A DNA stretch of 64,000 nucleotides, taken from the NCBI GenBank assembly GCA_023667245.1, contig JAMPAL010000004.1, forward strand, positions 1,063 to 65,062. Reading direction: 5' to 3'. Below the pieces are notes generated by a model. The model saw only the letters and a list, made by a program, of their open reading frames with translations, was not told the DNA's origin and searched no databases. This document shows positions 40,079 to 61,645 of this stretch, piece after piece. The stretch's first letter is position 1; the number at the start of each line of letters is the position of its first letter. This stretch comes from Anaeroplasma bactoclasticum. GTDB lineage: Bacteria > Bacillota_I > Bacilli_A > ML615J-28 > CAG-313. Both the position numbers and the translations under genes were made by a program.

Positions 40079-40294
40079 TTAGTCTAAATGAGGGTCTTCG
40101 TACATATAATTTATTGGTGATAAAATTGAAAAGAAAAAGGGTAAATGAAGGATTAAGAAGTCTTTCCAAGAATTTTGTCGAAGAAAAAGAATTAGAGGAA
40201 AACATTAAAACACAAATTACCAAAGAGATTAACAATCATCGTAAAAAATAATGCATTTTTCGTGCAAGAGACAAAAAATCGTAGTAGAATGTGG

Positions 40295-40410
40295 GTAATC
40301 TTCAGGGCAGGGTGAAATTCCCGACCGGTGGTTATAGTCCACGAGCTAGCAATAGCATGATTTGGTGCAATTCCAAAACCGATAGTAAAGTCTAGATGAA
40401 AGAAGACATA
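40295..40410 (+). promoter_or_regulatory. FMN riboswitch (RFN element)
   Basis: Conserved RFN core CTTCAGGGCAGGGTGAAATTCCCGACCGGTGGT...AGTCCACGAGC...GATTTGGTGCAATTCCAAAACCGATAGT...AGTCTAGATGAAAGAAG. Lies upstream of a RibU-type transporter. Confidence 0.9.
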
Positions 40411-40434
40411 ATGCCAATATTATGCCTAAAAAAA

Positions 40435-40466
40435 TACTGCCTAACTGAAGATGGGCAGTTTTTATT
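40435..40466 (+). terminator. riboswitch expression-platform terminator
   Basis: ACTGCC-(11 nt)-GGCAGT followed by TTTTT, directly before the ribU RBS. Confidence 0.6.
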
Positions 40467-40477
40467 TGGAGAAGGAT

Positions 40478-41119
40478 ATGAAAAAAAACAAAAAAGCGTT
40501 AGATTACATGACTAAAGTGGCTATCTTTTCTGCGATATCCATTGTCTTGTATTTTATTAAGTTTCCCCTACCTTTCCTATTTCCGGATTTTTTAGATATT
40601 CAATTTTCTAATCTTCCAGCAATATTAGGTGGGCTAGTAATGGGACCCATTGGTGGTGTGTTGATTGTAGTCATTCGAACTTTAATCAAATTACCATTTA
40701 CATCTACGGCAGGTGTAGGTGAATTGGCCGATTTATTGATAGGTGTTTCTACTGTTTTAACCAGTTCACTTGTTTATCACAAACTCAAGACCAAAAAGGG
40801 TGGTGCAATCGCACTGGCTTTGGGTGTTGTTGTATGGGTAGCAATGGCACTACTTGCTAATGGTACATTCTTGATTGAATTTTACAAAGAAGTGGCAGGA
40901 ATAGATGCGGTAATTGGTATGTGCAAAAAAGTATTACCATCTATGAATGAATCGAATTTTATGCGCCTTTATTTATTAGGAGCAATATTGCCTTTCAATT
41001 TGCTGCTTTCTACATTGGTTTCACTGGTTACTTTCTTTGTGTATAAACGTGTCTCCGTTTTATTCAAAAAGGAATTATTTCAGGGCAAAGCAACATCCAA
41101 TGAAAATATTAACCATTAG
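40478..41119 (+). CDS. ribU: riboflavin transporter, ECF S-component RibU
   Basis: ATG 40478 follows GGAGAAGG, whereas the ORF-track ATG 40451 lies inside the terminator hairpin. Motif FPLPFLFPDFLDIQFSNLPAILGGLVMGP. Five or six TM helices. FMN riboswitch upstream. Confidence 0.8.
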   Translation: MKKNKKALDYMTKVAIFSAISIVLYFIKFPLPFLFPDFLDIQFSNLPAILGGLVMGPIGGVLIVVIRTLIKLPFTSTAGVGELADLLIGVSTVLTSSLVYHKLKTKKGGAIALALGVVVWVAMALLANGTFLIEFYKEVAGIDAVIGMCKKVLPSMNESNFMRLYLLGAILPFNLLLSTLVSLVTFFVYKRVSVLFKKELFQGKATSNENINH

Positions 41120-47000: not shown

Positions 47001-47854
47001 TTCAGTGGTATCCTGGCCATATGGCCAAAGCCATCAAAGAAATTACCGAGAAAGTCAAAATTGTTGATTTAGTGATTGTCTTATTAGATGCTAGAGTGCC
47101 TTTGTCTTCTTTTAATCCGTTATTAAAAGAAATTTTATTGAATAAGAAAGTATTATATATTTTGACTAAAAAAGATAAAGCGGATGTTACTGAAACAGCA
47201 AAATGGTTAAAATACTATCAGTCGCTTGGCATAAGGGCAATTGCCATGGATGCGCGAGAATTGAAAAATGCTAAAATCGTCGTGAAAGAAGCTACGCAAT
47301 TATTAGCAGATAAACGGGCAAAAGATATTGCCAGAGGTATAAAACCAAGACCAATTAAAACGATGATTGTAGGAATTCCAAATGTAGGGAAATCAACGTT
47401 AATTAATGCTTTAGTTGGAAAAAGAGTAACTGCAGTGGGGGATAGGCCTGGTGTAACAAAGGTACAACAATGGATTAAAATCAATCAGGAGTTAGAACTA
47501 TTAGATACACCAGGGGTATTGTGGCAAAAGTTTGAAGATCAAACAATGGGACTCCATTTATCTATTACAGGTGCTATTCATGATGCAATATTACCAGTTG
47601 TAGAAGTTAGTGAATATTTGATTGATACTTTGAATCAGTATTATCCTGGTGTATTAGAGAAAAGATATCAATTATCTTTTCAACATCAGACAGCAGAAGA
47701 CATATTATGTTCAATTGCCAAAAAGCAAAACCATTATTTATCTGATAAATCATTTGATTTAGAAAGAACAGCTCTATTTTTGTTACAAGAAGTAAGAAAT
47801 GGATATTATGGAAAAATTACATTAGATAGGTGCCCAATATGCGAAAATCAGTAG
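46997..47854 (+). CDS. rbgA: ribosome biogenesis GTPase A (YlqF)
   Basis: Circularly permuted GTPase. Begins MIQWYPGHMAKA, with LTKKD, GIPNVGKST and DTPG. Conserved lepB-ylqF-rnhB order. Confidence 0.9.
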   Translation: MIQWYPGHMAKAIKEITEKVKIVDLVIVLLDARVPLSSFNPLLKEILLNKKVLYILTKKDKADVTETAKWLKYYQSLGIRAIAMDARELKNAKIVVKEATQLLADKRAKDIARGIKPRPIKTMIVGIPNVGKSTLINALVGKRVTAVGDRPGVTKVQQWIKINQELELLDTPGVLWQKFEDQTMGLHLSITGAIHDAILPVVEVSEYLIDTLNQYYPGVLEKRYQLSFQHQTAEDILCSIAKKQNHYLSDKSFDLERTALFLLQEVRNGYYGKITLDRCPICENQ

Positions 47855-48471
47855 AAGAGCTAAAAGAAAATTATGATTTTGAAGCCAAATATTATGCGGA
47901 AGGATTTCAATATATTGCGGGTACCGATGAAGTAGGAAGAGGACCTTTGGCAGGTCCTGTTGTGGCAAGTGCTGTCATTATGCCTAGGGGATGTTATATT
48001 GAAGGTGTTACAGATTCAAAGAAATTATCAAGTAAAAAAAGAAAAGCGTTGCGTGCTGAAATTGAAAAAAAGGCATTAAGCATTGTTACGGTATTTATTG
48101 ATGAGGAAACCATTGATCAAATCAATATTTATGAAGCTAGTCGCTTGGCCATGCAACAAGCTATAAAAGGCTTATATCCACAACCCGACCTGGTTTTATC
48201 CGATGCTATGCCATTGCATATGGAAATAGAGAATCTACCTATTATTAAGGGAGATGAAAAAAGTTTTGTTATTGGTTGTGCAAGTATTATTGCCAAGGAA
48301 ATTCGGGATGACTATATGGATATATTAGACAAAAGATATCCGGGATATGGATTCAGTCAAAATAAGGGATATCCAACCAAGGCACATCAAGAGGCATTAC
48401 AAACACAAGGTGTTTTGCCAATTCATCGCAAGACATATGGTCCTGTAGCAAGACTATTGCAAAAAAAATAA
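47830..48471 (+). CDS. rnhB: ribonuclease HII
   Basis: Motifs GTDEVGRGPLAGPVV, DSKKLS and GYPT..H. Confidence 0.92.
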   Translation: MPNMRKSVEELKENYDFEAKYYAEGFQYIAGTDEVGRGPLAGPVVASAVIMPRGCYIEGVTDSKKLSSKKRKALRAEIEKKALSIVTVFIDEETIDQINIYEASRLAMQQAIKGLYPQPDLVLSDAMPLHMEIENLPIIKGDEKSFVIGCASIIAKEIRDDYMDILDKRYPGYGFSQNKGYPTKAHQEALQTQGVLPIHRKTYGPVARLLQKK

Positions 48472-48485
48472 ACATAGGTGATAAG

Positions 48486-49415
48486 ATGAATTTATTACAT
48501 TTAAAATACGTTGTTGAAGTATACCAAACCAAGTCGTTTACAAAAGCCGCAGAAAATTTATATATGGGGCAACCAAATTTGAGTAGAGCCATTAAGGAGT
48601 TAGAGCAATCTTTAGGTATAACAATCTTTAGAAGAACATCAAGAGGCATTGAGATTACTGAAGCTGGCGAGGAATTTGTCCATTATGCCAAAAAGATATT
48701 GCAAGAAGTAGATGTTGTAGAAAAAAGGTATACACAACAAGAGGCACCAAAAGAAAAATTCTCTATACTGGTTCCACGTGCAAGTTACATTGGTTCTGCT
48801 TTTGTAGCATTTATGCGCAAGATTGATGCGAACAAACACATGGATATCACTTATAAAGAGACCAATTCTTTGAAAGCCTTGGATAAAGTATTAAAAGGCG
48901 AATATCGTTTGGGAATTATCCGATATCGCTCTTGTTTTGACCACGCGTTTAAACAAATGTTTGAGGAAAAAGGCTTAAACTATGAATTGATTTCCGAATT
49001 TCAGTACCAATTGGTGGTTCATCAAGATCATCCACTTACAAAACTTGAAAAAGTAACATGTGAGGATTTAAATCAATACATTGAAATTTGCCATCCTGAT
49101 CCGTATGTTCCCAATATTCCCTTCTATGATGTGAAAAAAATTGAATTTTCAGAATCCATTCATAGAAGAATATCTGTTTATGAAAGGGCTAGTCAATTTG
49201 ATTTACTTGAAAATTTACCCAATACGTTTATGTGGGTTTCGCCAATTCCCCAAAAGTTAATGGAAAAGTATAATTTGGTTGAGTTAATATGTGAAGAGCA
49301 TAGCAATAAATATAAGGATGTCTTGATTTTTAGAAAAGGTTATCATCTTACGCCCATTGACAATCAATTTTTAACTGTCTTATGTCAAGTAAAAAGAGAA
49401 ATTTTAAAAGAATAA
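48486..49415 (+). CDS. LysR-family transcriptional regulator
   Basis: N-terminal HTH (LLHLKYVVEVYQTKSFTKAAENLYMGQPNLSRAIKELEQSLG) and a substrate-binding domain of roughly 200 aa (my estimate). Confidence 0.85.
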   Translation: MNLLHLKYVVEVYQTKSFTKAAENLYMGQPNLSRAIKELEQSLGITIFRRTSRGIEITEAGEEFVHYAKKILQEVDVVEKRYTQQEAPKEKFSILVPRASYIGSAFVAFMRKIDANKHMDITYKETNSLKALDKVLKGEYRLGIIRYRSCFDHAFKQMFEEKGLNYELISEFQYQLVVHQDHPLTKLEKVTCEDLNQYIEICHPDPYVPNIPFYDVKKIEFSESIHRRISVYERASQFDLLENLPNTFMWVSPIPQKLMEKYNLVELICEEHSNKYKDVLIFRKGYHLTPIDNQFLTVLCQVKREILKE

Positions 49416-49416
49416 T

Positions 49417-49452
49417 ATCCATATCAATTTGATATGGATTTATTTGTTTTTT
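49417..49452 (+). terminator. intrinsic terminator after the LysR gene
   Basis: ATCCATATC-aattt-GATATGGAT followed by a T-rich run. Confidence 0.65.
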
Positions 49453-49456
49453 ACAT

Positions 49457-49485
49457 TTGCCAAAAAAGGACAAATTATGTATAAT
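49457..49485 (+). promoter_or_regulatory. sigma-A promoter of the rex-adhE-hfs unit
   Basis: TTGCCA, a 17-nt spacer, then TATAAT. Followed by a leader of about 165 nt. Confidence 0.6.
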
Positions 49486-49656
49486 AATAGAGTAATAACT
49501 TATTAGTACATAGAAATATCATTTTAAATCTCAGTAATCAAAAGGGAAAGAAGGCTAATAGTTGTGCAAAAATCATCATCGATGATTTTTCCTCTATAAT
49601 TTTCAATCGATATAAGAATATCGATATGTTTATATTTGATAAAAGGTGGTGAGAAT

Positions 49657-50280
49657 TTGTTACAAAATGCTGTTGCAAAAACAGTGCTTTATCGCATACC
49701 AATGTATTTGGAATATTTAATGGATATTTATGAAAATGAACCTTCTATCTCACATATTTCTTCAAAGAAAATTTCGACTGATTTAGAATTAGGAGAAGTG
49801 CAAGTGAGAAAAGATTTGTCGATGATATGCGATAAGGGGAAACCCAAAATAGGATATAATTTATTAGAACTCATTACTCATCTTCAGGATTACTTGGGAT
49901 GTAGTCATACCAAATATGCAATAGTAATAGGGATTGGAAAATTGGGTAGTGCCATTTATCATTATGATGGTTTCAAAAAATATGGAATTGAGATTGTCGC
50001 AGGATATGACAAAAAAGATAATGATATACCCGATATTCAAATTTTTTCTAAGGAAAATGTGATGAAAATAGTCCAAACGCATAAAATTGAAATTGGTATT
50101 ATTTGTGTGCCTAAAGAAGAGGCCCAAGAAGTTGCCGATGTACTAGTTACAATTGGTATAAAAGCAATTTGGAATTTTGCTCCTGTTCGGTTGAAGATTC
50201 CAAAACATATATTTGTTCAAAATGAAAATCTTGCTTATTCATTAAGCATTATCTCATCAATTATTAATCATTCACAATAG
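49657..50280 (+). CDS. rex: redox-sensing transcriptional repressor Rex
   Basis: N-terminal AKTVLYRIPMYLEYL (Rex winged-helix signature) and a Rossmann motif GIGKLGSAI. TTG 49657 lies 4 nt after AAAGGTGGTGAG; an in-frame TTG at 49636 is an alternative. Confidence 0.85.
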   Translation: MLQNAVAKTVLYRIPMYLEYLMDIYENEPSISHISSKKISTDLELGEVQVRKDLSMICDKGKPKIGYNLLELITHLQDYLGCSHTKYAIVIGIGKLGSAIYHYDGFKKYGIEIVAGYDKKDNDIPDIQIFSKENVMKIVQTHKIEIGIICVPKEEAQEVADVLVTIGIKAIWNFAPVRLKIPKHIFVQNENLAYSLSIISSIINHSQ

Positions 50281-50289
50281 GAGGTAGAC

Positions 50290-52893
50290 ATGAATAAAAT
50301 AGTTGACAGTTTAGAAACGTTAGAAGAAAAAATTAAAGAAGTGCGAAAGGCACAAGAAGTTTTATCTACTTATACACAAGAACAAGTAGATAAGATTTTT
50401 AAGGCTGCTGCTATTGCGGCAAATTCCAATCGAATTATGTTAGCAAAAATGGCAGTAGAGGAAACAGGCATGGGAGTGGTTGAAGATAAAGTCATCAAAA
50501 ACCATTATGCTAGTGAATATATTTATAATGCTTATCGTGATACACAAACTTGTGGTGTAATTGAGGAAGATAGTGCTTTTGGAATCAAAAAGGTTGCAGA
50601 ACCAATTGGTGTCATTGCTGCAGTTATTCCTACTACAAATCCAACATCTACAGCGATATTCAAAACATTAATTGCCCTAAAAACGCGAAATGGAATTATC
50701 ATTAGTCCACATCCAAGGGCGAAAAAGTCAACGATTGCTGCAGCAAAAGTTGTATTAGACGCTGCTGTAAAAGCGGGTGCGCCTAAACATATTATTGGTT
50801 GGATTGATGTTCCTAGCCTAGAAATGACAAATACTGTAATGAAAGAAGCTGATATTATTTTAGCAACAGGTGGTCCTGGTATGGTGAAGGCTGCCTACTC
50901 GAGTGGAAAACCTGCTTTAGGGGTGGGTTCTGGAAATACACCAGCAATTATCGATGAAAGTGCAGATGTGGTTCTTGCTGTTAACTCCATTATTCATTCT
51001 AAAACATTTGATAATGGAATGATTTGTGCATCTGAACAATCAGTAATTGTACTAAAGAAGGTATATGAGGAAGTAAAAACTGAATTTGTAAAACGGGGTT
51101 GTTATTTCTTAAATCCAGAAGAATTAGAGAAGGTGAGAAAAACAATTCTAATTAATGGATCTTTGAATGCGAAAATTGTAGGACAATCAGCCTATAAAAT
51201 CGCTCAATTATCAGGTATTGAGGTGCCTACTTACACAAAAATTTTAATTGGTGAAGTAGAAAAATATGATTTGAGTGAAGAGTTTGCGCATGAAAAATTA
51301 TCTCCAGTACTTGCTATGTATAAGGCTACTTCATTTGATGACGCTTTAGTTAAAGCAGAATCGTTGATTGCGGATGGTGGATTTGGGCATACTTCTTCGA
51401 TTTTTATTGATCAAATTCATGAAAAAACCAAATTAGAAAAATTTTATAATCGAATGAAGACATGTAGAATTATTGTCAATACACCAGCTTCTCAAGGAGG
51501 TATTGGTGATTTATATAACTTTAAACTTGCGCCATCTCTCACACTAGGTTGTGGATCATGGGGAGGAAATAGTGTTTCTGAAAATGTTGGTGTAAAACAT
51601 TTATTAAATATCAAAACAGTAGCGGAAAGAAGGGAAAATATGTTATGGTTTAGAACTCCTCAAAAAGTATATATCAAAAAAGGATGTTTGCCTGTTGCCC
51701 TAACTGAATTAAAGGCTGTATACAATAAAAAGAAAGTATTTATTGTAACAGATGGTTTCTTGTATCAAAATGGATATACAAAGCCTATTACAAATCAATT
51801 GGATGCTATGGGAATAATGCATACTACTTTCTATAATGTTGCCCCAGATCCTTCTTTAGGCAGTGCAAAAGAAGGAGCAATGCAAATGACAGCTTTTGAA
51901 CCAGATGCAATCATTGCCATAGGTGGCGGTTCCGCAATGGATGCTGCTAAAATCATGTGGGTATTGTATGAACATCCAGAAGTAGATTTTGCTGATATGT
52001 CCATGCGTTTTTCCGATATTCGCAAAAGAATTTATCAATTTCCAAAGATGGGGGAAAAAGCAATGTTTATTGCTATTCCAACTACAGCAGGAACTGGTTC
52101 TGAGGTTACACCATTTGCTGTTATTACAGATGAGGCTACGGGTATTAAATATCCACTAGCAGATTATGAATTGATGCCAAATATGGCAATTGTGGATGCG
52201 GATATGATGATGAATGCACCTAAAGGTCTTACGAGTGCATCAGGAATAGATGCGGTTACACATGCATTAGAAGCATATGCATCTATGCTTGCAACAGAAT
52301 ACACAGATGGTCTTGCAAAGGAAGCATTAAAGGTAATTTTTGAATATTTACCTCGGGCATATGAAGATGGTCCATCAGATGTAGTAGCTAGAGAAAAAAT
52401 GGCCAATGCAGCAACTATGGCAGGTATGGCTTTTGCCAATGCCTTCTTAGGGGTATGTCACTCTATGGCACATAAATTAGGTGCGTTCCACCATTTACCA
52501 CATGGTGTAGCTAATGCTTTAATGATTGATGAAGTCATTCGTTTCAATAGTGCAGAAATTCCAACCAAAATGGGAACCTTCCCACAATATGATCATCCGC
52601 ATACGGCTAGTCGATATGCTGAAATTGCAGACTATTTGGGATTAGATGGAAAGACAACCGAAGAAAAAGTAGAACTATTGATTCAAAAAATAGATCAGTT
52701 AAAAGAAAAAATTGGTATCAAACATTCTATTCAAGAATATGGTGTGGATGAAAAAGATTTTTTAGAAAGATTAGATAAAATGACTGAACAGGCATTTGAT
52801 GATCAATGTACTGGAGCTAATCCTCGTTATCCGCTAATGAGTGAAATTAAACAAATGTATTTAAATGCATATTATGGAAAGGAGACAAAATAA
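50290..52893 (+). CDS. adhE: bifunctional acetaldehyde-CoA / alcohol dehydrogenase
   Basis: 867 aa. N-terminal ALDH domain (catalytic Cys context FDNGMICASEQS) and a C-terminal iron-ADH domain (GGGSAMDAAK, HSMAHKLG). Confidence 0.97.
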   Translation: MNKIVDSLETLEEKIKEVRKAQEVLSTYTQEQVDKIFKAAAIAANSNRIMLAKMAVEETGMGVVEDKVIKNHYASEYIYNAYRDTQTCGVIEEDSAFGIKKVAEPIGVIAAVIPTTNPTSTAIFKTLIALKTRNGIIISPHPRAKKSTIAAAKVVLDAAVKAGAPKHIIGWIDVPSLEMTNTVMKEADIILATGGPGMVKAAYSSGKPALGVGSGNTPAIIDESADVVLAVNSIIHSKTFDNGMICASEQSVIVLKKVYEEVKTEFVKRGCYFLNPEELEKVRKTILINGSLNAKIVGQSAYKIAQLSGIEVPTYTKILIGEVEKYDLSEEFAHEKLSPVLAMYKATSFDDALVKAESLIADGGFGHTSSIFIDQIHEKTKLEKFYNRMKTCRIIVNTPASQGGIGDLYNFKLAPSLTLGCGSWGGNSVSENVGVKHLLNIKTVAERRENMLWFRTPQKVYIKKGCLPVALTELKAVYNKKKVFIVTDGFLYQNGYTKPITNQLDAMGIMHTTFYNVAPDPSLGSAKEGAMQMTAFEPDAIIAIGGGSAMDAAKIMWVLYEHPEVDFADMSMRFSDIRKRIYQFPKMGEKAMFIAIPTTAGTGSEVTPFAVITDEATGIKYPLADYELMPNMAIVDADMMMNAPKGLTSASGIDAVTHALEAYASMLATEYTDGLAKEALKVIFEYLPRAYEDGPSDVVAREKMANAATMAGMAFANAFLGVCHSMAHKLGAFHHLPHGVANALMIDEVIRFNSAEIPTKMGTFPQYDHPHTASRYAEIADYLGLDGKTTEEKVELLIQKIDQLKEKIGIKHSIQEYGVDEKDFLERLDKMTEQAFDDQCTGANPRYPLMSEIKQMYLNAYYGKETK

Positions 52894-52894
52894 G

Positions 52895-53644
52895 ATGGAT
52901 TTAGAACGTGTTATTGCCGTAAGAACATCAAAGACAATTTATCGAACAGGTGAAAAAGTTGTTAAGGTGTTTGATGAAGATTATTCAAAAGTAGATGTTT
53001 TAAATGAAGCACTAAATCAAGCGATTGTAGAAGGATTAGGACTTCATATTCCTAAGATCTATTCTGTAGAATCTGTAGAGGGAAAATGGGCGATTGTCTC
53101 TGAATATATAAAAGGGAAAACGATTTCTGATTTGATGCAAATGCATCCTGAGAAAAAAAGTGAATATTTAGAACAATTTGTGGATTTGCAACTATCTATG
53201 CATCAAATCAAGTGTTCTAATTTAAAGAAACTTAAAGACAAAATGAATACAAAAATTGGTCAAACGGATTTAGATGCTACTACTCGCTATGAATTACATA
53301 CGAGATTAGAGGGTATGCCTAAACATAATAAATTGTGTCATGGCGATTTTAATCCATCAAATGTGATTATTCGTGAGGATGGAACACCATTTATTATTGA
53401 TTGGAGTCATGCTACTCAAGGCAATGCATCTGCTGATGTTGCTCGAACATATTTGTTATTTTGGTTAAATCAAGAGGGTGAAACAGCAAACCAATATTTG
53501 GATTTATATTGCCAAAAGAGTGGTGTAGCTAAGAAATATATTCAGTCTTGGTTACCTATTGTTGCTGCGTCACAATCTGTAAAAGGTCATCAAAATGAAC
53601 GTGATCTTTTGTTGAGTTGGGTTAATGTTGTTGACTATGAATAG
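52895..53644 (+). CDS. APH-fold (aminoglycoside/choline-kinase-like) phosphotransferase family protein
   Basis: ATG 52895 follows GGAAAGGAGA, 1 nt after the adhE stop. Lys motif KVVKVF, catalytic loop HGDFNPSNVII and IIDWSHA. Confidence 0.7.
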   Translation: MDLERVIAVRTSKTIYRTGEKVVKVFDEDYSKVDVLNEALNQAIVEGLGLHIPKIYSVESVEGKWAIVSEYIKGKTISDLMQMHPEKKSEYLEQFVDLQLSMHQIKCSNLKKLKDKMNTKIGQTDLDATTRYELHTRLEGMPKHNKLCHGDFNPSNVIIREDGTPFIIDWSHATQGNASADVARTYLLFWLNQEGETANQYLDLYCQKSGVAKKYIQSWLPIVAASQSVKGHQNERDLLLSWVNVVDYE

Positions 53645-53653
53645 GAGGAAAAT

Positions 53654-53893
53654 ATGAAAAAAGTAGTAGTTTGTATAGGAAGTTCATGTCATTTAAAAGG
53701 TTCTAGACAAGTTGTAGAAAGATTGCAAGAATTAATCGCAGAATATGATTTAAAAGAAGAAGTAGAATTGCAAGGCACTTTTTGTATGGGCAACTGCCAA
53801 AAAGGGGTTTGCGTTAAAGTAGATGAAACATTATTTTCCGTATCCCCAGAAACAGTAGATTCATTCTTTCAAAAAGAGGTCATGGGAAAATAG
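53654..53893 (+). CDS. thioredoxin-like [2Fe-2S] ferredoxin-domain protein (HfsA-like), copy 1
   Basis: 79 aa with the Cys pattern CIGSSC...(31 aa)...CMGNC, which is the NuoE/HndA-type Cx4C...Cx3C pattern. Confidence 0.7.
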   Translation: MKKVVVCIGSSCHLKGSRQVVERLQELIAEYDLKEEVELQGTFCMGNCQKGVCVKVDETLFSVSPETVDSFFQKEVMGK

Positions 53894-53904
53894 GTGTATA
53901 GGAA

Positions 53905-54153
53905 ATGACAATTCAAATTTGTATTGGCAGTTCATGCCATCTAAAGGGCTCACAAAAAGTAATTGAATTATTTGAAAAAAGTATTCAGGAAAATCAATTA
54001 GAAGAAAAGGTAAAACTTGTAGGTTCTTTCTGTTTGGGAAAGTGTAGCAATTCAGGGGTTAATGTTTGTATTGATGGTAAAGAAATTATTAGTGTAACTC
54101 CAGAAAATTTTTACTCGTTTTTCAATGATAAAGTATTAAAATATCTAAAATAG
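53905..54153 (+). CDS. thioredoxin-like [2Fe-2S] ferredoxin-domain protein, copy 2
   Basis: 82 aa. Paralogue of the previous CDS with the same pattern (CIGSSC...CLGKC). Confidence 0.7.
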   Translation: MTIQICIGSSCHLKGSQKVIELFEKSIQENQLEEKVKLVGSFCLGKCSNSGVNVCIDGKEIISVTPENFYSFFNDKVLKYLK

Positions 54154-54162
54154 GTGAGAAAT

Positions 54163-55839
54163 ATGTCCGAATTTTTAAAATTAAAGAAATCAAATTGTAA
54201 AAATTGTTATAAATGTATTCGACATTGTCCAGTAAAATCAATTAAATTCTCTGGAGATCAGGCGCATATTGTTGGCAACGAATGTATTTTATGTGGTCAG
54301 TGTTTTGTTGTTTGTCCACAAAATGCCAAAGAAATTCAGAATGATTTAGAAAAAGTAAAAGTAATGCTTGCTGCAAAAGAACAAGTCATTGTAAGTTTAG
54401 CTCCATCATTTATTGCCAACTACGATGGAATTGGCCTTGAACAAATGGCAGAAGCTCTACGTCAATTGGGATTTTTTGCGGTAGAGGAAACCGCTATTGG
54501 TGCAACCATTGTAAAAAAGCAATACGAAGCCATTTTGGAGTCAAAAAGACAAAATATCTTGATTACATCTTGTTGTCATTCTGTTAATTTACTCATTCAA
54601 AAGTATTTTCCTAGTGCACTTCGATATCTTGCTGATGTAAAATCTCCTATGCAAATGCATGCAATAGATATCAAGAAGAGAATGCCTAATGCCAAAGTTG
54701 TATTTATTGGGCCATGTCTTGCCAAAAAGGATGAGGCAGACCATTATACGGGAATTGTTGATGCTGTTTTGACATACGAAGAATTGACAATGTGGTTAAA
54801 AGAAAGCAATATTGTTCTAGAAAAAGGACTAGAAGTAAATGAAAAGTCAAAGGCAAGATTATTCCCAATAACTGGGGGTGTCTTAAAAACAATGAAACCC
54901 GATATTGCAGGCTATAAATATATTGCAATTGATGGGGTAGAAAATTGTATAGCTGCTTTAAAGGATATAGAAAATGGAATGTTAGATAATTGCGTAATTG
55001 AAATGTCAGCTTGCGTAGGTAGTTGTATAGGTGGGCCAGTTATGGAGAAATATCATCGTTCCCCTATTCGTGATTATTGTTCAGTAGTAAGTTATGCGGG
55101 CGATCAAGATTTTGATGTAGAAGCATATGGTGATGAGGAACTAACCAAACATTTTGAATATATTGCAAGAAAGGCAGAAGAACCATCTGAAGATGCTATT
55201 CGTTCTATTCTAAGACAGATGGGCAAGATGCGCCCATCAGATGAATTAAATTGTGGTTCATGTGGCTATAATACTTGTCGTGAAAAAGCAATAGCGATTA
55301 TTCAGGGCAAAGCATCTATTTCTATGTGTTTGCCTTTCCTAAAAGAAAGAGCAGAGAAATTTTATACTAATATTATTGATAATACGCCAGATGGTATTTT
55401 AGTGCTAAATGAAGATTTAGAGGTCCAACAAATCAATGATGCAGCACGTAAGATTATGAATATTAAATATGCAACGGACGTATTAGGAGATCAAGTCATT
55501 CGTATTCTTGATCCATATCCATTCTTGCAAGTCAAATTAAACAACAAAAATGTCTATAATGAACGCATTTATTTGGCTGAGTATAATCGATATGTAGAAA
55601 GAACCATCGTTTATGATAAAAATTATAAGATTATCATTTGTTTTATGAGAGATGTTACACTTGAAGTTACCGCAAAAGAAAAGAAAGATGAAATCTCTTC
55701 AAAAACGGTAGAAATCGCTGATAAAGTGGTGGATAAACAAATGCGTATTGTCCAAGAAATTGCCTCCCTTTTAGGAGAAACTGCAGCTGAAACAAAAATT
55801 GCTTTAACGAAATTAAAGGAGTCAATTAAGGATGAATAA
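54163..55839 (+). CDS. sensory [FeFe]-hydrogenase homologue with PAS domain (HydS/HfsB-like)
   Basis: Two CxxCxxCxxxCP ferredoxin motifs. H-domain motifs ITSCCHSV, IGPCLAKKDE and EMSACVGSCIGGP. Cx2Cx4Cx16C (CGSCGYNTC...MC). C-terminal PAS-like segment (IIDNTPDGILVLNEDLEVQQINDAARKIM). Confidence 0.8.
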   Translation: MSEFLKLKKSNCKNCYKCIRHCPVKSIKFSGDQAHIVGNECILCGQCFVVCPQNAKEIQNDLEKVKVMLAAKEQVIVSLAPSFIANYDGIGLEQMAEALRQLGFFAVEETAIGATIVKKQYEAILESKRQNILITSCCHSVNLLIQKYFPSALRYLADVKSPMQMHAIDIKKRMPNAKVVFIGPCLAKKDEADHYTGIVDAVLTYEELTMWLKESNIVLEKGLEVNEKSKARLFPITGGVLKTMKPDIAGYKYIAIDGVENCIAALKDIENGMLDNCVIEMSACVGSCIGGPVMEKYHRSPIRDYCSVVSYAGDQDFDVEAYGDEELTKHFEYIARKAEEPSEDAIRSILRQMGKMRPSDELNCGSCGYNTCREKAIAIIQGKASISMCLPFLKERAEKFYTNIIDNTPDGILVLNEDLEVQQINDAARKIMNIKYATDVLGDQVIRILDPYPFLQVKLNNKNVYNERIYLAEYNRYVERTIVYDKNYKIIICFMRDVTLEVTAKEKKDEISSKTVEIADKVVDKQMRIVQEIASLLGETAAETKIALTKLKESIKDE

Positions 55840-57004
55840 TCTTTGTACAGATATAGGCTATCGTAGTTTACTCAAACATCATGAGCAACTTTGTGGTGAT
55901 CATATAGATATTATTGACCAAGAGGATGGAACAAAAATTATTGTGCTTGCTGATGGATTAGGAAGCGGGGTAAAAGCATGTATTTTATCAACTCTAACTT
56001 CGAAAATTATTTCAACAATGATGGCAGAAGGAATTTCTATTGAGGAATGTGTAGCAACGATTGCTGCGACATTACCCGTTTGTTCTGTTCGAAAAGTGGC
56101 TTATTCCACTTTTACGATTTTGAAAATTTCACCTAATAGTGAAGCGGAAGTTATAGAATATGATAATCCTGGGATTATTTTAATTCGTGATGGGGAAAAT
56201 TATGAGTTAAATAAAACCGAATTGAACATTGGTGGTAAAAAAATTTATAAATCTAAAGTTCAATTATATGAAAATGACGTATTTGTAATGATGAGTGATG
56301 GATGTATTTATGCTGGAGTGGGGAAAACACTTAATTTTGGTTGGAAAAGGGAAGATATCATTGAAATGGTAAAAATATTACCATCAGCAGGTTATACAGC
56401 AAAAACAATGACAACAATTTTACTAGATGAGTGCAATAAATTATATGGCTATGAACCAGGAGATGACACGACTGCTTGTGTGGTTCGAATTAGAAAAAGA
56501 GAACCGATGAATCTTTTGTTTGGCCCACCAAGTAATCCAGATGATTGTAATCGAATGATGTCACTGTTTTTTTCCAAAGGTGGAAAACACATTGTATGTG
56601 GCGGAACAACTTCATCTATAGCTGCTAAATACTTAGGTAAATCAATTACGCCATCACTCAATTATTCGGATCCTAAAATTCCACCAACTGCTGAAATTGA
56701 GGGAGTAGATTTGGTAACAGAAGGTGTAATTACCATCAATCGTGTATTAGAATATGCAAAGGATTATTTAGAAGATAATCAATCTTATGTCAATTGGTGC
56801 TATAAAAAAGATGGAGCATCTTTAATCTCGCGTCTTTTATTTGAAGAAGCTACCGATATTAATTTTTATGTAGGAAGAGCGATGAATCCTGCACATCAAA
56901 ACCCCAATCTACCTATCAATTTCAATATAAAAATGCAATTGGTTCAAGAACTATCAGAGTGCTTGAAAAAGATGGGAAAAAATATAAAAGTAAGTTATTT
57001 TTAG
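55832..57004 (+). CDS. SpoIIE/PP2C-family serine phosphatase with C-terminal domain of unknown function (HfsC-like)
   Basis: Motifs CGDHIDII, VLADGLGSGVKA, MMSDGCIY and DDTTACVV. ATGAATAA overlap with the upstream stop. Confidence 0.8.
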   Translation: MNNLCTDIGYRSLLKHHEQLCGDHIDIIDQEDGTKIIVLADGLGSGVKACILSTLTSKIISTMMAEGISIEECVATIAATLPVCSVRKVAYSTFTILKISPNSEAEVIEYDNPGIILIRDGENYELNKTELNIGGKKIYKSKVQLYENDVFVMMSDGCIYAGVGKTLNFGWKREDIIEMVKILPSAGYTAKTMTTILLDECNKLYGYEPGDDTTACVVRIRKREPMNLLFGPPSNPDDCNRMMSLFFSKGGKHIVCGGTTSSIAAKYLGKSITPSLNYSDPKIPPTAEIEGVDLVTEGVITINRVLEYAKDYLEDNQSYVNWCYKKDGASLISRLLFEEATDINFYVGRAMNPAHQNPNLPINFNIKMQLVQELSECLKKMGKNIKVSYF

Positions 57005-57012
57005 GTGAAAAT

Positions 57013-58437
57013 ATGAAAAAATTTGATACACAAGTTCAATATTTAAAATATAAAGTATTAAGAGAAGTAGCAAGAAAAGCTTGGGATGATACGTTGTATG
57101 AAAAAATATTGGATATACCCAAAATTATTATTCCAGGCCCCACCCCAACTACAAGATGTTGTATTTATAAAGAAAGAGCAATTGTTGAAGAAAGAATTAA
57201 GATTGCTATGGGTGGAGATAAATCAAATCCCAATGTCATAGAAGTCATTGATTTAGCTTGTGATGAATGTCCTGTTGCAGGATACGAAGTAACAGATGTA
57301 TGTAGAGGTTGTCTTGCACATCGTTGTCAAGATGCGTGTAAGAAAGATGCCATTTATTTTGATCACAACCAAAAAGCCCATATTGATAAATCTAAATGTG
57401 TAGAGTGTGGAAAGTGTTCTGCAGTATGCCCATATGGTGCTATTGTGAATTTTAAAAGACCATGTGAAAAATCATGTAAAGTAAAAGCGATTTCTATGGG
57501 ACCCAATAAGGCAGCTAAAATTGATAATGATAAATGTATTTCTTGTGGCTCATGTGTTTACCAATGTCCATTCGGCGCTATTATGGATAAATCTTATATT
57601 ATCAATGTCATTGATATTTTGAAAAAAAGTCAACATAATCAAAAATATAAAACTTATGCAGTAGTAGCTCCATCCATATCTAGTCAATTTGTGCATGCCA
57701 AATTAGGACAAGTTATTTCAGGCATCAAAGAATTAGGATTCTTTACAGTGGTAGAAGCTGCTCTTGGTGCTGATATGGTGGCATATAAGGAAACACAAGA
57801 ATTAATAGAAAAGGGCTTTTTAACCAGCTCATGTTGTCCTGCTTTTGTGATGTATATTAGAAAGAATTTCCCTAAATTGGTAGAACATATTTCGCACAAT
57901 TTGTCTCCTGCCGCAGAAATTGCAAAATATATTAAAGAGACAGATCCAACCGCAAAAGTGATTTTTATTGGTCCATGTACTGCTAAGAAGGCTGAATTTC
58001 AACAAGAAATGCAGAAACAATATGTTGATTCTGTATTGACATTTGAAGAATTGCAAGCCCTTTTTGATAGTAAAGATTTAGATATTTATTCATTATCAGA
58101 AGATGTTTTAGATAATGCGTCTTATTATGGTAGAATCTTTGCTAGAAGTGGAGGTTTAACGGATGCTGTAAAACAGGCATTAATTGAATTGGGACAAACG
58201 GAGTTTGAAGTAAAGCCAGTCGTATGTAATGGAATTGAAGAATGTCGAATGGCCCTATTAAAAGTTGGCAAAATTGATATTGGTAACTTTATTGAAGGAA
58301 TGGCTTGTGTAGGCGGATGTATTGCTGGAGCAGGTTGTTTAACTCATGGTGAAAAAAATAAAGCAGAAGTAGATAAATACGGTATGGAAGCATACGAAAA
58401 AACCATTCAGGATGCTATCAAAGTGCTAAAAAAATAG
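57013..58437 (+). CDS. [FeFe]-hydrogenase homologue, monomeric group-B-like (HfsD-like)
   Basis: ATG 57013 follows AGGTGAAAA. N-terminal region IIPGPTPTTRCCIYKERAIVEERIK. Several 4Fe-4S motifs (CVECGKCSAVCP, CISCGSCVYQCP). H-domain motifs LTSSCCPAFV, IGPCTAKKAE and EGMACVGGCIAGAGC. Confidence 0.8.
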   Translation: MKKFDTQVQYLKYKVLREVARKAWDDTLYEKILDIPKIIIPGPTPTTRCCIYKERAIVEERIKIAMGGDKSNPNVIEVIDLACDECPVAGYEVTDVCRGCLAHRCQDACKKDAIYFDHNQKAHIDKSKCVECGKCSAVCPYGAIVNFKRPCEKSCKVKAISMGPNKAAKIDNDKCISCGSCVYQCPFGAIMDKSYIINVIDILKKSQHNQKYKTYAVVAPSISSQFVHAKLGQVISGIKELGFFTVVEAALGADMVAYKETQELIEKGFLTSSCCPAFVMYIRKNFPKLVEHISHNLSPAAEIAKYIKETDPTAKVIFIGPCTAKKAEFQQEMQKQYVDSVLTFEELQALFDSKDLDIYSLSEDVLDNASYYGRIFARSGGLTDAVKQALIELGQTEFEVKPVVCNGIEECRMALLKVGKIDIGNFIEGMACVGGCIAGAGCLTHGEKNKAEVDKYGMEAYEKTIQDAIKVLKK

Positions 58438-58486
58438 TTTGTTCAATGGTTTTGCAAAAGATTTGCTTATCCATATGAAGTATGCT

Positions 58487-58523
58487 AAAATTACCTCATA
58501 TATAATATGTGAGGTAATTTTTT
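58487..58523 (+). terminator. intrinsic terminator ending the rex-adhE-hfs unit
   Basis: AAAATTACCTCA-(11 nt)-TGAGGTAATTTT followed by TT, ending 1 nt before ATG 58524. Confidence 0.75.
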
Positions 58524-59372
58524 ATGGACAATACTCATTTCGTTCAAGAAGAAATAGAGGTTATATCTACAGTTAACCAAGCATTACGACAAAGTTATTT
58601 TCGATATGAGAAAAAGATGAACATATTCAATTTTACAATTTTTATTTGTTGCTTTATTGTCTTGATTTTGGTGGGATTGCTTCTATCTTCCATAGTTATA
58701 ATAGGAATTGGCGTAGGGATTATGCTATTTTTATTATTGATGTTAATTATTGTGTTGATAAATGTGCACAAGCGATCCAAATTGTCTTGTGATGTATCCT
58801 ATGATGAATTTGTTTTTGTATCAGATGCATTCATAGTAACAGAAAAATCAAAATCTAATTCGTCTACAACAAAGATTTTGTATACGCAAATCGTTGGAAT
58901 TGTAGAAAATAAAGATTTCTTTTTGATTCAATTGGTAGACAATAGAGGCTACCTTATTGAAGTAAATGGCAATGAACAGGCACTTTGGAAGATTAAAAGA
59001 ATGATATTTCCGTATGTGAAAATATTCAATCAAATTAAGGTAAATAAGAAGACAAGCGTTGAAGAATGTGAATATTTTGATAATGCTTTAAAGTTATCAC
59101 CTGGTATGGTATCTGCTCTAAATGCATTATTGACATTTGCTTCACTCATTGTCGGGATGTTTTGTGTTTATATCGATCAAAATACATTATGGCCATTTGT
59201 GTTATTTCCAGTGGTTTTAGTTTTGCAACTCGGTATAATCGGATTAGGTGTTTTTCTAGGTATCAAAAGTGGTCAACCTAAAAAGAGTATTCTTGCAATA
59301 GTAATGGGGAGTATACTGTTTTTTTCGGAATTGATGATATGTTTATCTTATGTCATACTGCATTATTTATAA
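58524..59372 (+). CDS. membrane protein with YcxB-like central domain
   Basis: Two N-terminal TM helices, a soluble segment (ILYTQIVGIVENKDFFLIQLVDNRGYLIEVNG) and three or four C-terminal TM helices. Confidence 0.5.
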   Translation: MDNTHFVQEEIEVISTVNQALRQSYFRYEKKMNIFNFTIFICCFIVLILVGLLLSSIVIIGIGVGIMLFLLLMLIIVLINVHKRSKLSCDVSYDEFVFVSDAFIVTEKSKSNSSTTKILYTQIVGIVENKDFFLIQLVDNRGYLIEVNGNEQALWKIKRMIFPYVKIFNQIKVNKKTSVEECEYFDNALKLSPGMVSALNALLTFASLIVGMFCVYIDQNTLWPFVLFPVVLVLQLGIIGLGVFLGIKSGQPKKSILAIVMGSILFFSELMICLSYVILHYL

Positions 59373-59489: not shown

Positions 59490-59518
59490 CAAAACACAAA
59501 ATGATGACGAGGTGTTTT

Positions 59519-61645
59519 ATGAAATTACTCATCGTGGAATCTCCAGCAAAGTGTAAAACCATAGGAAATTATTTAGGTGAAGAATATTTAGTAGAGTCTA
59601 GTATAGGTCATATTAGAGATCTCAAAATTAAAGGCAAAGGTGGATTCGGAGTAGATATCGAAAATAACTTTCAGCCTGAATATAGTATTTTAAAAGACAA
59701 AGGAGAAGTCGTTGAAAAATTAAAATCAGTTGCCAATTTGGCAGAACATATCTATTTAGCAACTGACCCTGACCGTGAGGGAGAAGCCATTAGTTGGCAT
59801 TTGAGTGAGGTACTAGAACAACCAGATGAAAAGGTTTCTAGAATTGTATTTAATGAAATTACTAAAAATGCAATACTAAAAGCGATTCAACATGATCGAG
59901 ATATAGATATGGATTTGGTGCATTCACAAGAATCAAGAAGAATATTAGACCGTATCATTGGATTTCGTTTATCTAGTTTACTTCAACAAAAAATAGGTTC
60001 AAAATCAGCTGGTCGAGTACAATCGGTTGCTTTGAAATTAGTAGTAGATCGTGAAAAGGAAATTGAGGCATTTGATAAGGTTGAATATTGGGATTTGGCT
60101 GCTATTTTAAATAAGGAAATAGCTGGAAATATATATACGTTACGGGCTAAATTTTTTGGCCGAAAAGATGAAAAGATGACACTTTCTTCTGAGGAGGAAA
60201 CCAATCAAGTCATAGCATCTTTAAAAGAAGATGAATACCAAATCATTGATATTAATAAGAAGGAAAGAAGTCGTGCTTCGCGTCCTCCTTTTATTACTTC
60301 AACGTTACAACAAGATGCTGGTGCGAAATTCAATTACAATGCAAAACGAGTGATGGGAATTGCCCAAAAGTTATATGAAGGTGTTGAACTTGGTAAAGAG
60401 CGTGTTGGTTTGATTACTTATATGCGTACTGACTCTATTCGTTTATCAGATGAGTTTGTTCGTTCAGCAAAACAATATATTACTGAAAAATATGGTGAAA
60501 AATATTATAAAGGAACCAAAAAAGCGCCCAAAGGAAAGAATATACAAGATGCGCATGAAGCTATCCGTCCAACCAATATTGCTAGAACACCAGAGAGTGT
60601 GAAAAAATACTTGGCTGCTGATGAATATAAAATCTATTCCTTAATATATAATAGAGCGATTGCCTCTTTAATGAGTGATGCTATATTAGAAGATACGAAA
60701 GTGGATATTGAAAATCAAGGATACATTTTTAATTTAACAGGTGAAATTACTTTATTTGATGGTTTTTTAACTATTTATGAAGAATCGAGTTTGGTTGATG
60801 AAGAAGAAAATTTGGATCACTTACCAGAGTTATCCATTGGAGAAAATTTATCCTTTCAAGAAATTTCAAAGGAACAGAAATTTACTTCACCACCATATCG
60901 CTATACTGAGGCAAGATTAATTCGTAAGATGGAAGAACTAGGAATTGGAAGACCTTCTACTTATGCATTAACAATGGAAACTTTGCGGGCAAGAGCATAT
61001 GTAGCGATGGAAAAGAAAACATTTGTACCTACTGCACAAGGAAGACTTACAACAGAGCAATTGGAATTGTTCTTTAGCAGTATTATTAATGTGAAATATA
61101 CAGCTGATATGGAAAATACATTAGATAAAATTGCTGAAGGTAATGCCATTTGGTATGAGGAACTTCGTAAATTCTATGATGTATTTGCCCCATTGATTGA
61201 AAATGCTAGAGACAATATGGTCAAAATATATCCCAAAATAACGGATGAATTTTGTCCTGAATGTGGGTTACCCTTATTTATTAGGCGTGGTCCATTTGGT
61301 GAATTCACGGCTTGCTCGGGTTATCCTCATTGTCATTACATCAAAAAAGCGCCAAAGAAGGAAGTGGTTACAACTGGAGTAACTTGTCCAATCTGTGGTG
61401 AGGGTGAGGTTGTCGAAAGAACAAGCGCAAGGGGCAGATCAAAAGGAGCATTATTTTATGCTTGTAGTCGTTTCCCAAAATGCAAAGCAACTTTTTCAGG
61501 TATTCCTACGGGAGAAAAGTGTGAAATTTGTGGTGCGCCAATGATTCGAGTAGGTGAAATTATTCGTTGTAATAGTGAACGCTGTAAATCCAATGTTGGA
61601 TTACTACCTCAAAAAGAAGAAAATAAAAAGATTGATAGTCAGTAG
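59519..61645 (+). CDS. topA: DNA topoisomerase I
   Basis: Begins MKLLIVESPAK (Toprim), with DPDREGE and the active-site region GLITYMRTDS. Three C-terminal Cys4 zinc ribbons. ATG 59519 follows GAGGTG. Confidence 0.97.
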   Translation: MKLLIVESPAKCKTIGNYLGEEYLVESSIGHIRDLKIKGKGGFGVDIENNFQPEYSILKDKGEVVEKLKSVANLAEHIYLATDPDREGEAISWHLSEVLEQPDEKVSRIVFNEITKNAILKAIQHDRDIDMDLVHSQESRRILDRIIGFRLSSLLQQKIGSKSAGRVQSVALKLVVDREKEIEAFDKVEYWDLAAILNKEIAGNIYTLRAKFFGRKDEKMTLSSEEETNQVIASLKEDEYQIIDINKKERSRASRPPFITSTLQQDAGAKFNYNAKRVMGIAQKLYEGVELGKERVGLITYMRTDSIRLSDEFVRSAKQYITEKYGEKYYKGTKKAPKGKNIQDAHEAIRPTNIARTPESVKKYLAADEYKIYSLIYNRAIASLMSDAILEDTKVDIENQGYIFNLTGEITLFDGFLTIYEESSLVDEEENLDHLPELSIGENLSFQEISKEQKFTSPPYRYTEARLIRKMEELGIGRPSTYALTMETLRARAYVAMEKKTFVPTAQGRLTTEQLELFFSSIINVKYTADMENTLDKIAEGNAIWYEELRKFYDVFAPLIENARDNMVKIYPKITDEFCPECGLPLFIRRGPFGEFTACSGYPHCHYIKKAPKKEVVTTGVTCPICGEGEVVERTSARGRSKGALFYACSRFPKCKATFSGIPTGEKCEICGAPMIRVGEIIRCNSERCKSNVGLLPQKEENKKIDSQ

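Follow-up and report, generated by a model that had tools for sequence, protein, structure and literature searches.

What would bring the gene for the NADH-sensing repressor Rex and that for the bifunctional dehydrogenase AdhE into one tight array with a kinase, a phosphatase and two homologues of [FeFe]-hydrogenase? This question is raised by the 49.4-58.5 kb region, + strand, of a 64-kb stretch of contig JAMPAL010000004.1 (Anaeroplasma bactoclasticum; the whole stretch is referred to here as the window). An earlier note, drawn from the sequence alone, read the region as an under-described H2/redox signalling system that tunes AdhE-dependent fermentation. Our analysis reveals instead a new copy, in a new host lineage, of a known, published system that is common among bacteria of gut and rumen. 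The region is the orthologue of a cluster in Ruminococcus albus 7, and we consider it probable that it acts as a single transcription unit for the 'high-H2' branch of fermentation, equipped with its own sensor.

The relationship to R. albus was found by tblastn of HydS, the first of the two hydrogenase homologues, against plasmid records, which identified pRUMAL01 (64.8% identity over 99% of the protein). RUMAL_RS17345-17385 of this plasmid encode, in the same order and orientation as the window, LysR, Rex, AdhE (Aad), a phosphotransferase, two (2Fe-2S) proteins, HydS, a SpoIIE phosphatase and HydA2. Protein identities between the two copies are 41% for Rex, 74% for AdhE, 66% for the kinase, 65% for HydS, 69% for the PP2C phosphatase and 72% for HydA2. 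Lengths are alike (HydS 558 amino acids (aa), PP2C 390/389 aa, kinase 249 aa), as are the domain architectures and the B1 type of HydA2, and hydS overlaps the phosphatase gene by an identical 8 nucleotides (nt). The copies differ in replicon and host: that of R. albus, a member of the Oscillospiraceae, lies on a 420-kb plasmid, whereas the window copy is chromosomal, in a host of 33% GC Bacilli/Acholeplasmataceae type. They differ too in their control regions, the window having the longer leader (~170 nt) and another arrangement of promoter and boxes.

The R. albus copy comes with transcriptional data. Greening et al. 2019 (ISME J, PMC6776011) describe a 'putative eight-gene cluster' whose expression falls 111-fold when R. 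albus shares its culture with a consumer of H2, the largest transcriptional change reported there, and propose that the group C enzyme, with its phosphatase, senses H2 directly. An earlier model, that of Zheng et al. 2014 (J Bacteriol) as relayed by citing papers, has HydS sense H2 and signal by way of its PAS domain to a neighbouring Ser/Thr kinase, with Rex involved. The same nine-gene layout (counting LysR) on pRUMAL01, its publication as an H2-responsive cluster of eight genes and its frequency in relatives remove the label 'under-described'. The functional half of the earlier proposal, H2/redox signalling that tunes AdhE-dependent fermentation, fares better, being supported by the literature. 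By analogy with R. albus, the 111-fold H2-dependent co-regulation may hold for the window copy as well.

The cluster itself consists of eight co-directional coding sequences: rex, adhE, an APH-fold kinase gene, two genes for [2Fe-2S] proteins, hydS, the PP2C phosphatase gene and hydA2 (Table 1). Nine had been counted before, in a note whose own list likewise names eight; the leader, where a ninth was sought, holds just open reading frames of 24-25 aa without support. With R. albus, and genes called independently on L083 (a same-species contig), as guides to the start codons, successive gaps from rex to hydA2 measure 9, 1, 9, 11 and 9 nt, then the 8-nt hydS/PP2C overlap, then 8 nt, in agreement with the same-strand packing first described (1-11 nt gaps or an 8-nt overlap). 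Pfam and NCBIfam scans of the translated genes confirm all of the proposed identities, with every domain assignment of the cluster proteins passing its curated cut-off. Rex scores 224.4 bits against NF003994 (cut-off 130) and carries both VRKDLS, the winged-helix RKDLS motif, and GIGKLG, the GxGxxG site for NAD(H); on L083 it is likewise called as a 207-aa gene. AdhE scores 1395.8 bits against NF010378 (cut-off 951) and is 74-83% identical to the cluster-encoded AdhE of R. albus and other relatives.

We assessed recurrence of this layout by mapping the window proteins with tblastn onto the 80 closest HydS loci in species-representative genomes (HydS 66-82% identical), a choice of sample that means the frequencies are not unbiased. 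Upstream counts are taken over the 52 loci whose upstream flank spans 5.8 kb or more and downstream counts over the 66 with enough flank. The genes for AdhE and the kinase lie directly 5' of the 2Fe2S-HydS module at 34 of the 52, and 19 of these 34 also have rex; the full lysR-rex-adhE-kinase arrangement of the window is found at 14/52, and a lysR homologue precedes the cluster at 35/52. Downstream of HydS, PP2C and then HydA2 follow in 60 of 66 cases. Two [2Fe-2S] genes stand directly 5' of hydS at 44 of the 71 loci where the upstream flank is 1.3 kb or longer. One locus, L003, has the same layout as the window with proteins 58-88% identical. The association is thus not confined to this genome, a comparison that the earlier note had called for; the adhE-kinase-sensor arrangement is the rule in the HydS clade, not a peculiarity of the window.

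The same survey reveals that the sensor module can stand apart. adhE is absent from 18/52 loci, the kinase occurs without adhE at 8, and Monoglobus pectinilyticus retains the bare core 2Fe2S-HydS-PP2C-HydA2. Such separability favours an account in which the genes share a pathway but are read from several independent promoters, Rex and LysR controlling rex-adhE only and the sensor module hydA2 only, with no direct link between HydS and AdhE. Set against this, adhE is never found without a neighbouring kinase gene (34/34).

Transcription signals bear further on this point. Upstream of rex, the candidate sigma-A promoter P1 shares 11 of 12 positions with the consensus and has an alternative -35 element (TTTACA) at 49450-49455. 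It is the joint best consensus match within the 12 kb scanned, in which promoter-like sites overall are not enriched (56 found versus 61 expected from shuffles). What supports P1 as a real promoter is conservation of its position, after a LysR-type transcriptional regulator (LTTR) box, in four relatives of the same subclade (L083, L084, L085 and L003), including L084, which lacks rex. At the 3' end the intrinsic terminator is strong (z = -4.74 versus shuffles, with 0/200 shuffles folding as well), and a scan for + strand terminator-like sites inside the cluster found none. Both boundaries therefore stand as originally proposed. Because a conserved promoter, tight gaps and a single strong 3' terminator coincide, with no terminator in between, we infer that co-transcription of the cluster in its host is likely.

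Independent promoters could also draw on the promoter-like hexamers that occur within coding regions, and on a second promoter-like element, TGTATAAT, directly 5' of rex in rex-carrying relatives. This element is present in L085 and L003; the window is without it. Several observations run the other way: intergenic promoters have no space where genes lie 1-11 nt apart or, in one case, overlap, internal promoter-like sites are no commoner than in shuffled sequence, no + strand terminator interrupts the genes, and in R. albus the eight genes respond jointly. We regard separate promoters as very unlikely, and retain the single transcription unit.

The control region has further structure. The palindrome just 3' of the lysR stop codon is terminator-like, and also resembles the LTTR-type box ATATC-N7-GATAT found at the same spot in L083, L084, L085 and L003. 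Members of the subclade that carry rex have ~170 nt of extra leader, containing a small hairpin and a second box. The hairpin (AATCATC-N3-4-GATGATTT) has the same stem in L083, L085 and L003 with a variable loop, and might serve as operator or weak attenuator; the second box, a perfect inverted repeat, is common to the same three relatives. A search of the 170-nt leader for a riboswitch or attenuator gave no Rfam match, and the fold is no better than that of shuffles (z = -0.42).

Does Rex act on this control region? The canonical operator TTGTTAANNNNTTAACAA has no match in 49400-49660 with as many as 3 mismatches allowed, and genome-wide matches are fewer than shuffles predict. The upstream regions of the window, R. 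albus and L003 are all without a Rex box, their best sites having 4-5 mismatches (5 in the window), which is shuffle-level. Clostridia relatives present a different picture. Between lysR and the first gene they have an LTTR-type box (TATC-N7-ATA, often TATCGATAA...ATACCGATA) and, ~50 nt later, a promoter whose -10 element is contained in or overlapped by a textbook Rex box (TTGTTAAAATATTAACAA). A Rex box with up to 2 mismatches overlaps the -10 in 19 of 38 upstream regions from relatives. It is present at 13/13 loci where adhE follows lysR without a cis-encoded rex, and missing from 15 of the 20 where rex is encoded in cis, among which are the window and R. albus. Relatives with the box include L004, L006, L008, L014, L015, L031, L044, L045, L047, L050, L061, L064 and L071. 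Boxes containing ATCGAT occur in 19/20 rex-first upstream regions versus 1/13 adhE-first, and we considered whether they form an operator specific to the Rex of the cluster. Looked at closely, they conform to the TATC-N7-ATA LTTR-type box that rex-less loci have as well, and their correlation with rex may be phylogenetic.

HydS has the order of domains that defines the M2f architecture: two [4Fe-4S] modules, the H-domain, a Cx2Cx4Cx16C motif (in 83/83 orthologues), a PAS domain and a strongly conserved C-terminal helix. All four cysteine ligands of the H-cluster are present, as are the motifs SCCHS, GPC and ACxGSC. In the L1 motif, TSCCHS (around residues 135-140), both cysteines are kept in 82/83 orthologues, and histidine stands in place of the motif proline. 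Two active-site replacements are of sensory type (M353 to Gly and M497 to Ser), and two residues of the proton pathway are exchanged (E279 to Lys and R286 to Glu). Architecture and methionine replacements agree with the sensory (group C) class given to this protein in the earlier note, and Greening et al. 2019 (PMC6776011) label the R. albus orthologue group C. Database relatives of HydS number more than 8000 at E < 1e-30. The last ~45 residues (55690-55836, +), which form the C-terminal helix, are almost invariant as far as R. albus and Monoglobus, far above the preceding PAS domain. From this conservation the helix is a candidate dimerization or partner-binding element.

The second hydrogenase, HydA2, had been called 'group-B-like', a description borne out by a full-length match to TIGR04105 (FeFe_hydrog_B1, monomeric [FeFe] hydrogenase). 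Residues 4-445 align to positions 1-461 of the 462-position model at 560.5 bits (cut-off 450), and the group A model is failed (151.5 bits, cut-off 406). R. albus HydA2 behaves identically (TIGR04105 577 bits; group A model likewise failed). In Greening et al. 2019 (PMC6776011) that orthologue is labelled 'group A1', a naming conflict with the B1 of the NCBIfam model that affects both the window gene and its counterpart at L001 (11844-13280). HydA2 is presumed to be ferredoxin-dependent and H2-evolving.

The kinase matches PF01636 at 73.9 bits, with weak, mixed similarities to RIO1, Bud32, choline kinase and APH. Across 57 orthologues, K24, E38, H149-G150-D151, N156 and D169 each show at least 95% conservation. 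Because the catalytic Lys and Glu, the HGD motif, the Asn and the Mg-binding Asp are all kept, the enzyme is predicted to be catalytically active; a protein substrate is plausible.

The phosphatase (PF07228, 61.3 bits) was modelled with AlphaFold2 (pLDDT 80.9, pTM 0.84) and divides into two domains. Foldseek matches the N-terminal domain to SpoIIE, RsbU and RsbX (E = 1e-12 to 1e-10). The C-terminal 165 aa (56501-57001, +) form an alpha/beta domain that, modelled alone, reaches a pLDDT of 87.3. It is marked by the invariant motifs CGG(T/S)TS and NPAHQNP-LPI, and aligned orthologues are 73-100% identical. Pfam (E up to 10) and a PDB sequence search gave no match for this domain, and Foldseek of its model against the PDB gave no neighbour (best E = 0.016, template modelling score at most 0.37). 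A profile search places it in 1149 representative clusters, mostly as the C-terminus of ~390-aa proteins. Some proteins with the domain measure 160-170 aa and may be stand-alone forms or fragments; eight of atypical length had no Pfam family either.

From these components we infer the direction of signalling and the existence of a phosphorylated target as follows. AdhE re-oxidizes NADH through ethanol formation, and HydA2 would dispose of reduced ferredoxin as H2. HydS would bind H2 at an H-cluster tuned in the sensory manner by the M353 and M497 replacements, and its C-terminal [4Fe-4S] cluster and PAS domain would relay the resulting redox change to the PP2C phosphatase, with which HydS is translationally coupled. 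This enzyme, opposing the APH-fold kinase, would set the phosphorylation state of a target. Rex would read the NADH/NAD+ ratio and the upstream LysR-type regulator would act too, such that the operon is expressed under accumulating H2 and shut down once a partner organism takes the H2 away. We can also imagine a bolder version, in which the kinase/PP2C pair phosphorylates the Rex, LysR or AdhE of the cluster itself, creating an H2-gated Rex/AdhE phospho-switch on NADH sensing with the new phosphatase domain as receiver or adaptor; this we think improbable.

A number of observations weigh against the proposed scheme. HydS keeps the equivalents of the proton-pathway residues C299, S319 and E282. 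The first of these, the start of the group A proton-transfer path in CpI, is reportedly lost in the sensory M2e/M2f subclasses; because its equivalent is retained in 82/83 orthologues, HydS may have a catalytic role. The APH fold also covers small-molecule kinases. The link to Rex in the host genome is one of co-location, without a canonical operator, and in Thermoanaerobacterium rex expression goes up with ethanol, contrary to what is expected of a simple repressor.

The retained proton-pathway residues are part of the case for a rival, in which hydS, the PP2C gene, hydA2 and the [2Fe-2S] genes specify an HfsABCD-type multisubunit catalytic hydrogenase, HydS and the small ferredoxin-like proteins being its catalytic or electron-transfer subunits, with kinase and phosphatase regulating the hydrogenase or AdhE post-translationally rather than acting on transcription. 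The hfs operon of Thermoanaerobacterium is described as encoding the main ferredoxin-linked hydrogenase, and deletion of hfsB raises NADH-linked alcohol dehydrogenase activity without a matching rise in aldehyde dehydrogenase, for which its authors suggest possible post-transcriptional regulation. The frequent pairing of two dedicated [2Fe-2S] genes with hydS would also suit a complex. Yet HydS carries both methionine replacements, has a PAS domain as well as the C-terminal Cx2Cx4Cx16C cluster characteristic of group C, and has lost E279 and R286 from the proton pathway. H2 production survives deletion of hfsB alone and needs hfsD; and the whole R. albus cluster is under 111-fold transcriptional control. 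Both the sensory-type replacements at the active site and the transcriptional data are harder to reconcile with a catalytic complex, in our judgement an unlikely one, than with an H2-responsive transcription unit that has its own sensor.

What the cluster governs is the choice between acetate plus H2 and ethanol in fermenting gut and rumen bacteria, a choice that sets both the H2 reaching methanogens and the ethanol yield of engineered strains. The window copy itself adds little beyond a new host lineage. Useful for solving the signalling step are the joint travel of adhE, kinase, HydS, PP2C and HydA2 in most close relatives, the Rex box, seen in half of the relatives, at the promoter of the cluster and the conserved domain of the phosphatase that existing models do not cover.

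Table 1 Features of the cluster and its control region, in window coordinates.
Feature	Coordinates	Strand	Basis and remarks
LysR-family transcriptional regulator	48486-49415	+	Pfam HTH_1 and LysR_substrate; directly 5' of the cluster
Palindrome ATCCATATCAA-T-TTGATATGGAT	49417-49439	.	Terminator scan and inverted-repeat search; just 3' of the lysR stop
Candidate promoter P1, TTGCCA-17-TATAAT	49457-49485	+	Consensus match 11/12
Leader hairpin AAAAATCATC-ATC-GATGATTTTT	49568-49590	+	Inverted-repeat search and comparison of relatives
Perfect 8-bp inverted repeat ATCGATAT-AAGA-ATATCGAT	49606-49625	.	31 nt 5' of the rex start; candidate LTTR-type regulator-binding box
rex, NADH/NAD+-sensing repressor	49657-50280	+	TTG start, 207 aa; NF003994; Pfam Put_DNA-bind_N and CoA_binding
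adhE, bifunctional acetaldehyde-CoA/alcohol dehydrogenase	50290-52893	+	NF010378; Pfam Aldedh, Fe-ADH, ADH_Fe_C
APH-fold (eukaryotic-like) kinase, 249 aa	52895-53644	+	PF01636
Thioredoxin-like [2Fe-2S] protein A, 79 aa, Cx4C...Cx3C	53654-53893	+	PF01257, NuoE-family matches
Thioredoxin-like [2Fe-2S] protein B, 82 aa	53905-54153	+	PF01257, NuoE-family matches
hydS, HydS/HfsB-type putative sensory [FeFe]-hydrogenase	54163-55839	+	Pfam Fe_hyd_lg_C, PF04060, PAS, Fer4
SpoIIE/PP2C phosphatase (residues 1-225) with ~165-aa C-terminal alpha/beta domain	55832-57004	+	PF07228
hydA2, HydA2/HfsD-type monomeric [FeFe]-hydrogenase (B1 type)	57013-58437	+	TIGR04105
Intrinsic terminator closing the cluster	58487-58523	+	16-bp hairpin and U run

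In the host the cluster is chromosomal, lying between rnhB (47830-48471) and topA (59501-61645), with housekeeping genes on either side (ftsK, a signal peptidase gene, a ribosome-associated GTPase gene and rnhB upstream; topA and ftsY downstream). The same arrangement is found on L083, a 501-kb contig from a metagenome-assembled genome (MAG) of the same species (GCA_023664905.1, JAMPET010000002.1). GC content is 33% throughout the window, and the composition of the cluster is not distinct. AdhE and HydA2 share 72-83% identity with their Clostridia counterparts, about as close as the leucyl-tRNA synthetase (LeuRS) is to its own class, where the nearest named relatives ('Bacilli bacterium' and 'Acholeplasmataceae bacterium') are 74-75% identical. 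The NCBI labels 'Prevotella sp.' and 'Staphylococcus sp.' on L083 proteins were rejected as mislabelling, given 33% GC and LeuRS relatives among Bacilli/Acholeplasmataceae. The closest species-representative HydS (82%) belongs to an 'uncultured Bacilli bacterium' MAG, and the module is present too on the complete chromosome of a 'Mycoplasmatota bacterium'. Because L003 and the window have unrelated flanks, the R. albus copy is on a plasmid, the system is spread over Clostridia, Bacilli-type and 'Mycoplasmatota' genomes and AdhE and HydA2 are so close to Clostridia versions, the block from lysR to hydA2 (48486-58523) behaves as a horizontally transferred cassette, though its GC content equals that of the host.

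Two other features of the window deserve mention. Immediately downstream, a 282-aa multi-pass membrane protein with a weak YcxB-like match is encoded at 58524-59372 (+), its ATG following directly on the last U of the terminator (58523). It appears to evolve fast, since it is 80% identical to its L083 copy while its neighbours are 96-99% identical. Further upstream is a flavin mononucleotide (FMN) riboswitch (40294-40411, +; Rfam RF00050, 106.7 bits), directly 5' of a gene for the S-component of an energy-coupling factor transporter (40451-41119), presumably for riboflavin.

Among characterized systems beyond R. albus, the nearest in gene order is the hfsABCD operon of Thermoanaerobacterium saccharolyticum, T. 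thermosaccharolyticum and Clostridium thermocellum (Shaw 2009; Eminoglu 2017; PMC11837493). Published work treats HfsB as the equivalent of HydS and HfsD as that of HydA2. Compared by architecture and published descriptions, the B-C-D part of the core order agrees: the PAS-[FeFe]-hydrogenase HfsB, the serine phosphatase HfsC and the ferredoxin-linked hydrogenase HfsD, with a small protein encoded upstream of HfsB. When hfsB is deleted, five thermophiles express more adhE and yield more ethanol, in line with the tie between the Thermoanaerobacterium hfs locus and ethanol yield that the earlier note mentions. In these organisms adhE and rex lie elsewhere in the genome and the accounts of the operon consulted mention no kinase, whereas the window has both genes and a kinase gene within the cluster. 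The first position also differs: HfsA is described as unlike known proteins, its structure partly matching [FeFe]-hydrogenase large subunits, and the window has two ~80-aa thioredoxin-like [2Fe-2S] proteins in its place.

For the sensor itself the closest parallel is TmHydS of Thermotoga maritima (group C, M2f), which has the same architecture as the window HydS and the same exchanges of M353 for Gly and M497 for Ser. TamHydS is a group D (M2e) protein; C299, reported as not conserved in M2e/M2f, is retained in the HydS clade of the window. Sluggish turnover and a high affinity for H2 are reported for TmHydS and TamHydS. The partners of the window HydS are a PP2C phosphatase and an APH-fold kinase, not a histidine kinase. 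A like logic is found in HoxBC-HoxJ-HoxA of Ralstonia eutropha, where H2 is sensed by a hydrogenase of low activity and transcription of the metabolic hydrogenase genes is altered through a kinase step linked to a PAS domain. That system is [NiFe]-based and built from unrelated families, with a histidine kinase and response regulator in place of a Ser/Thr kinase and PP2C phosphatase, and it controls the uptake of H2 rather than a branch of fermentation.

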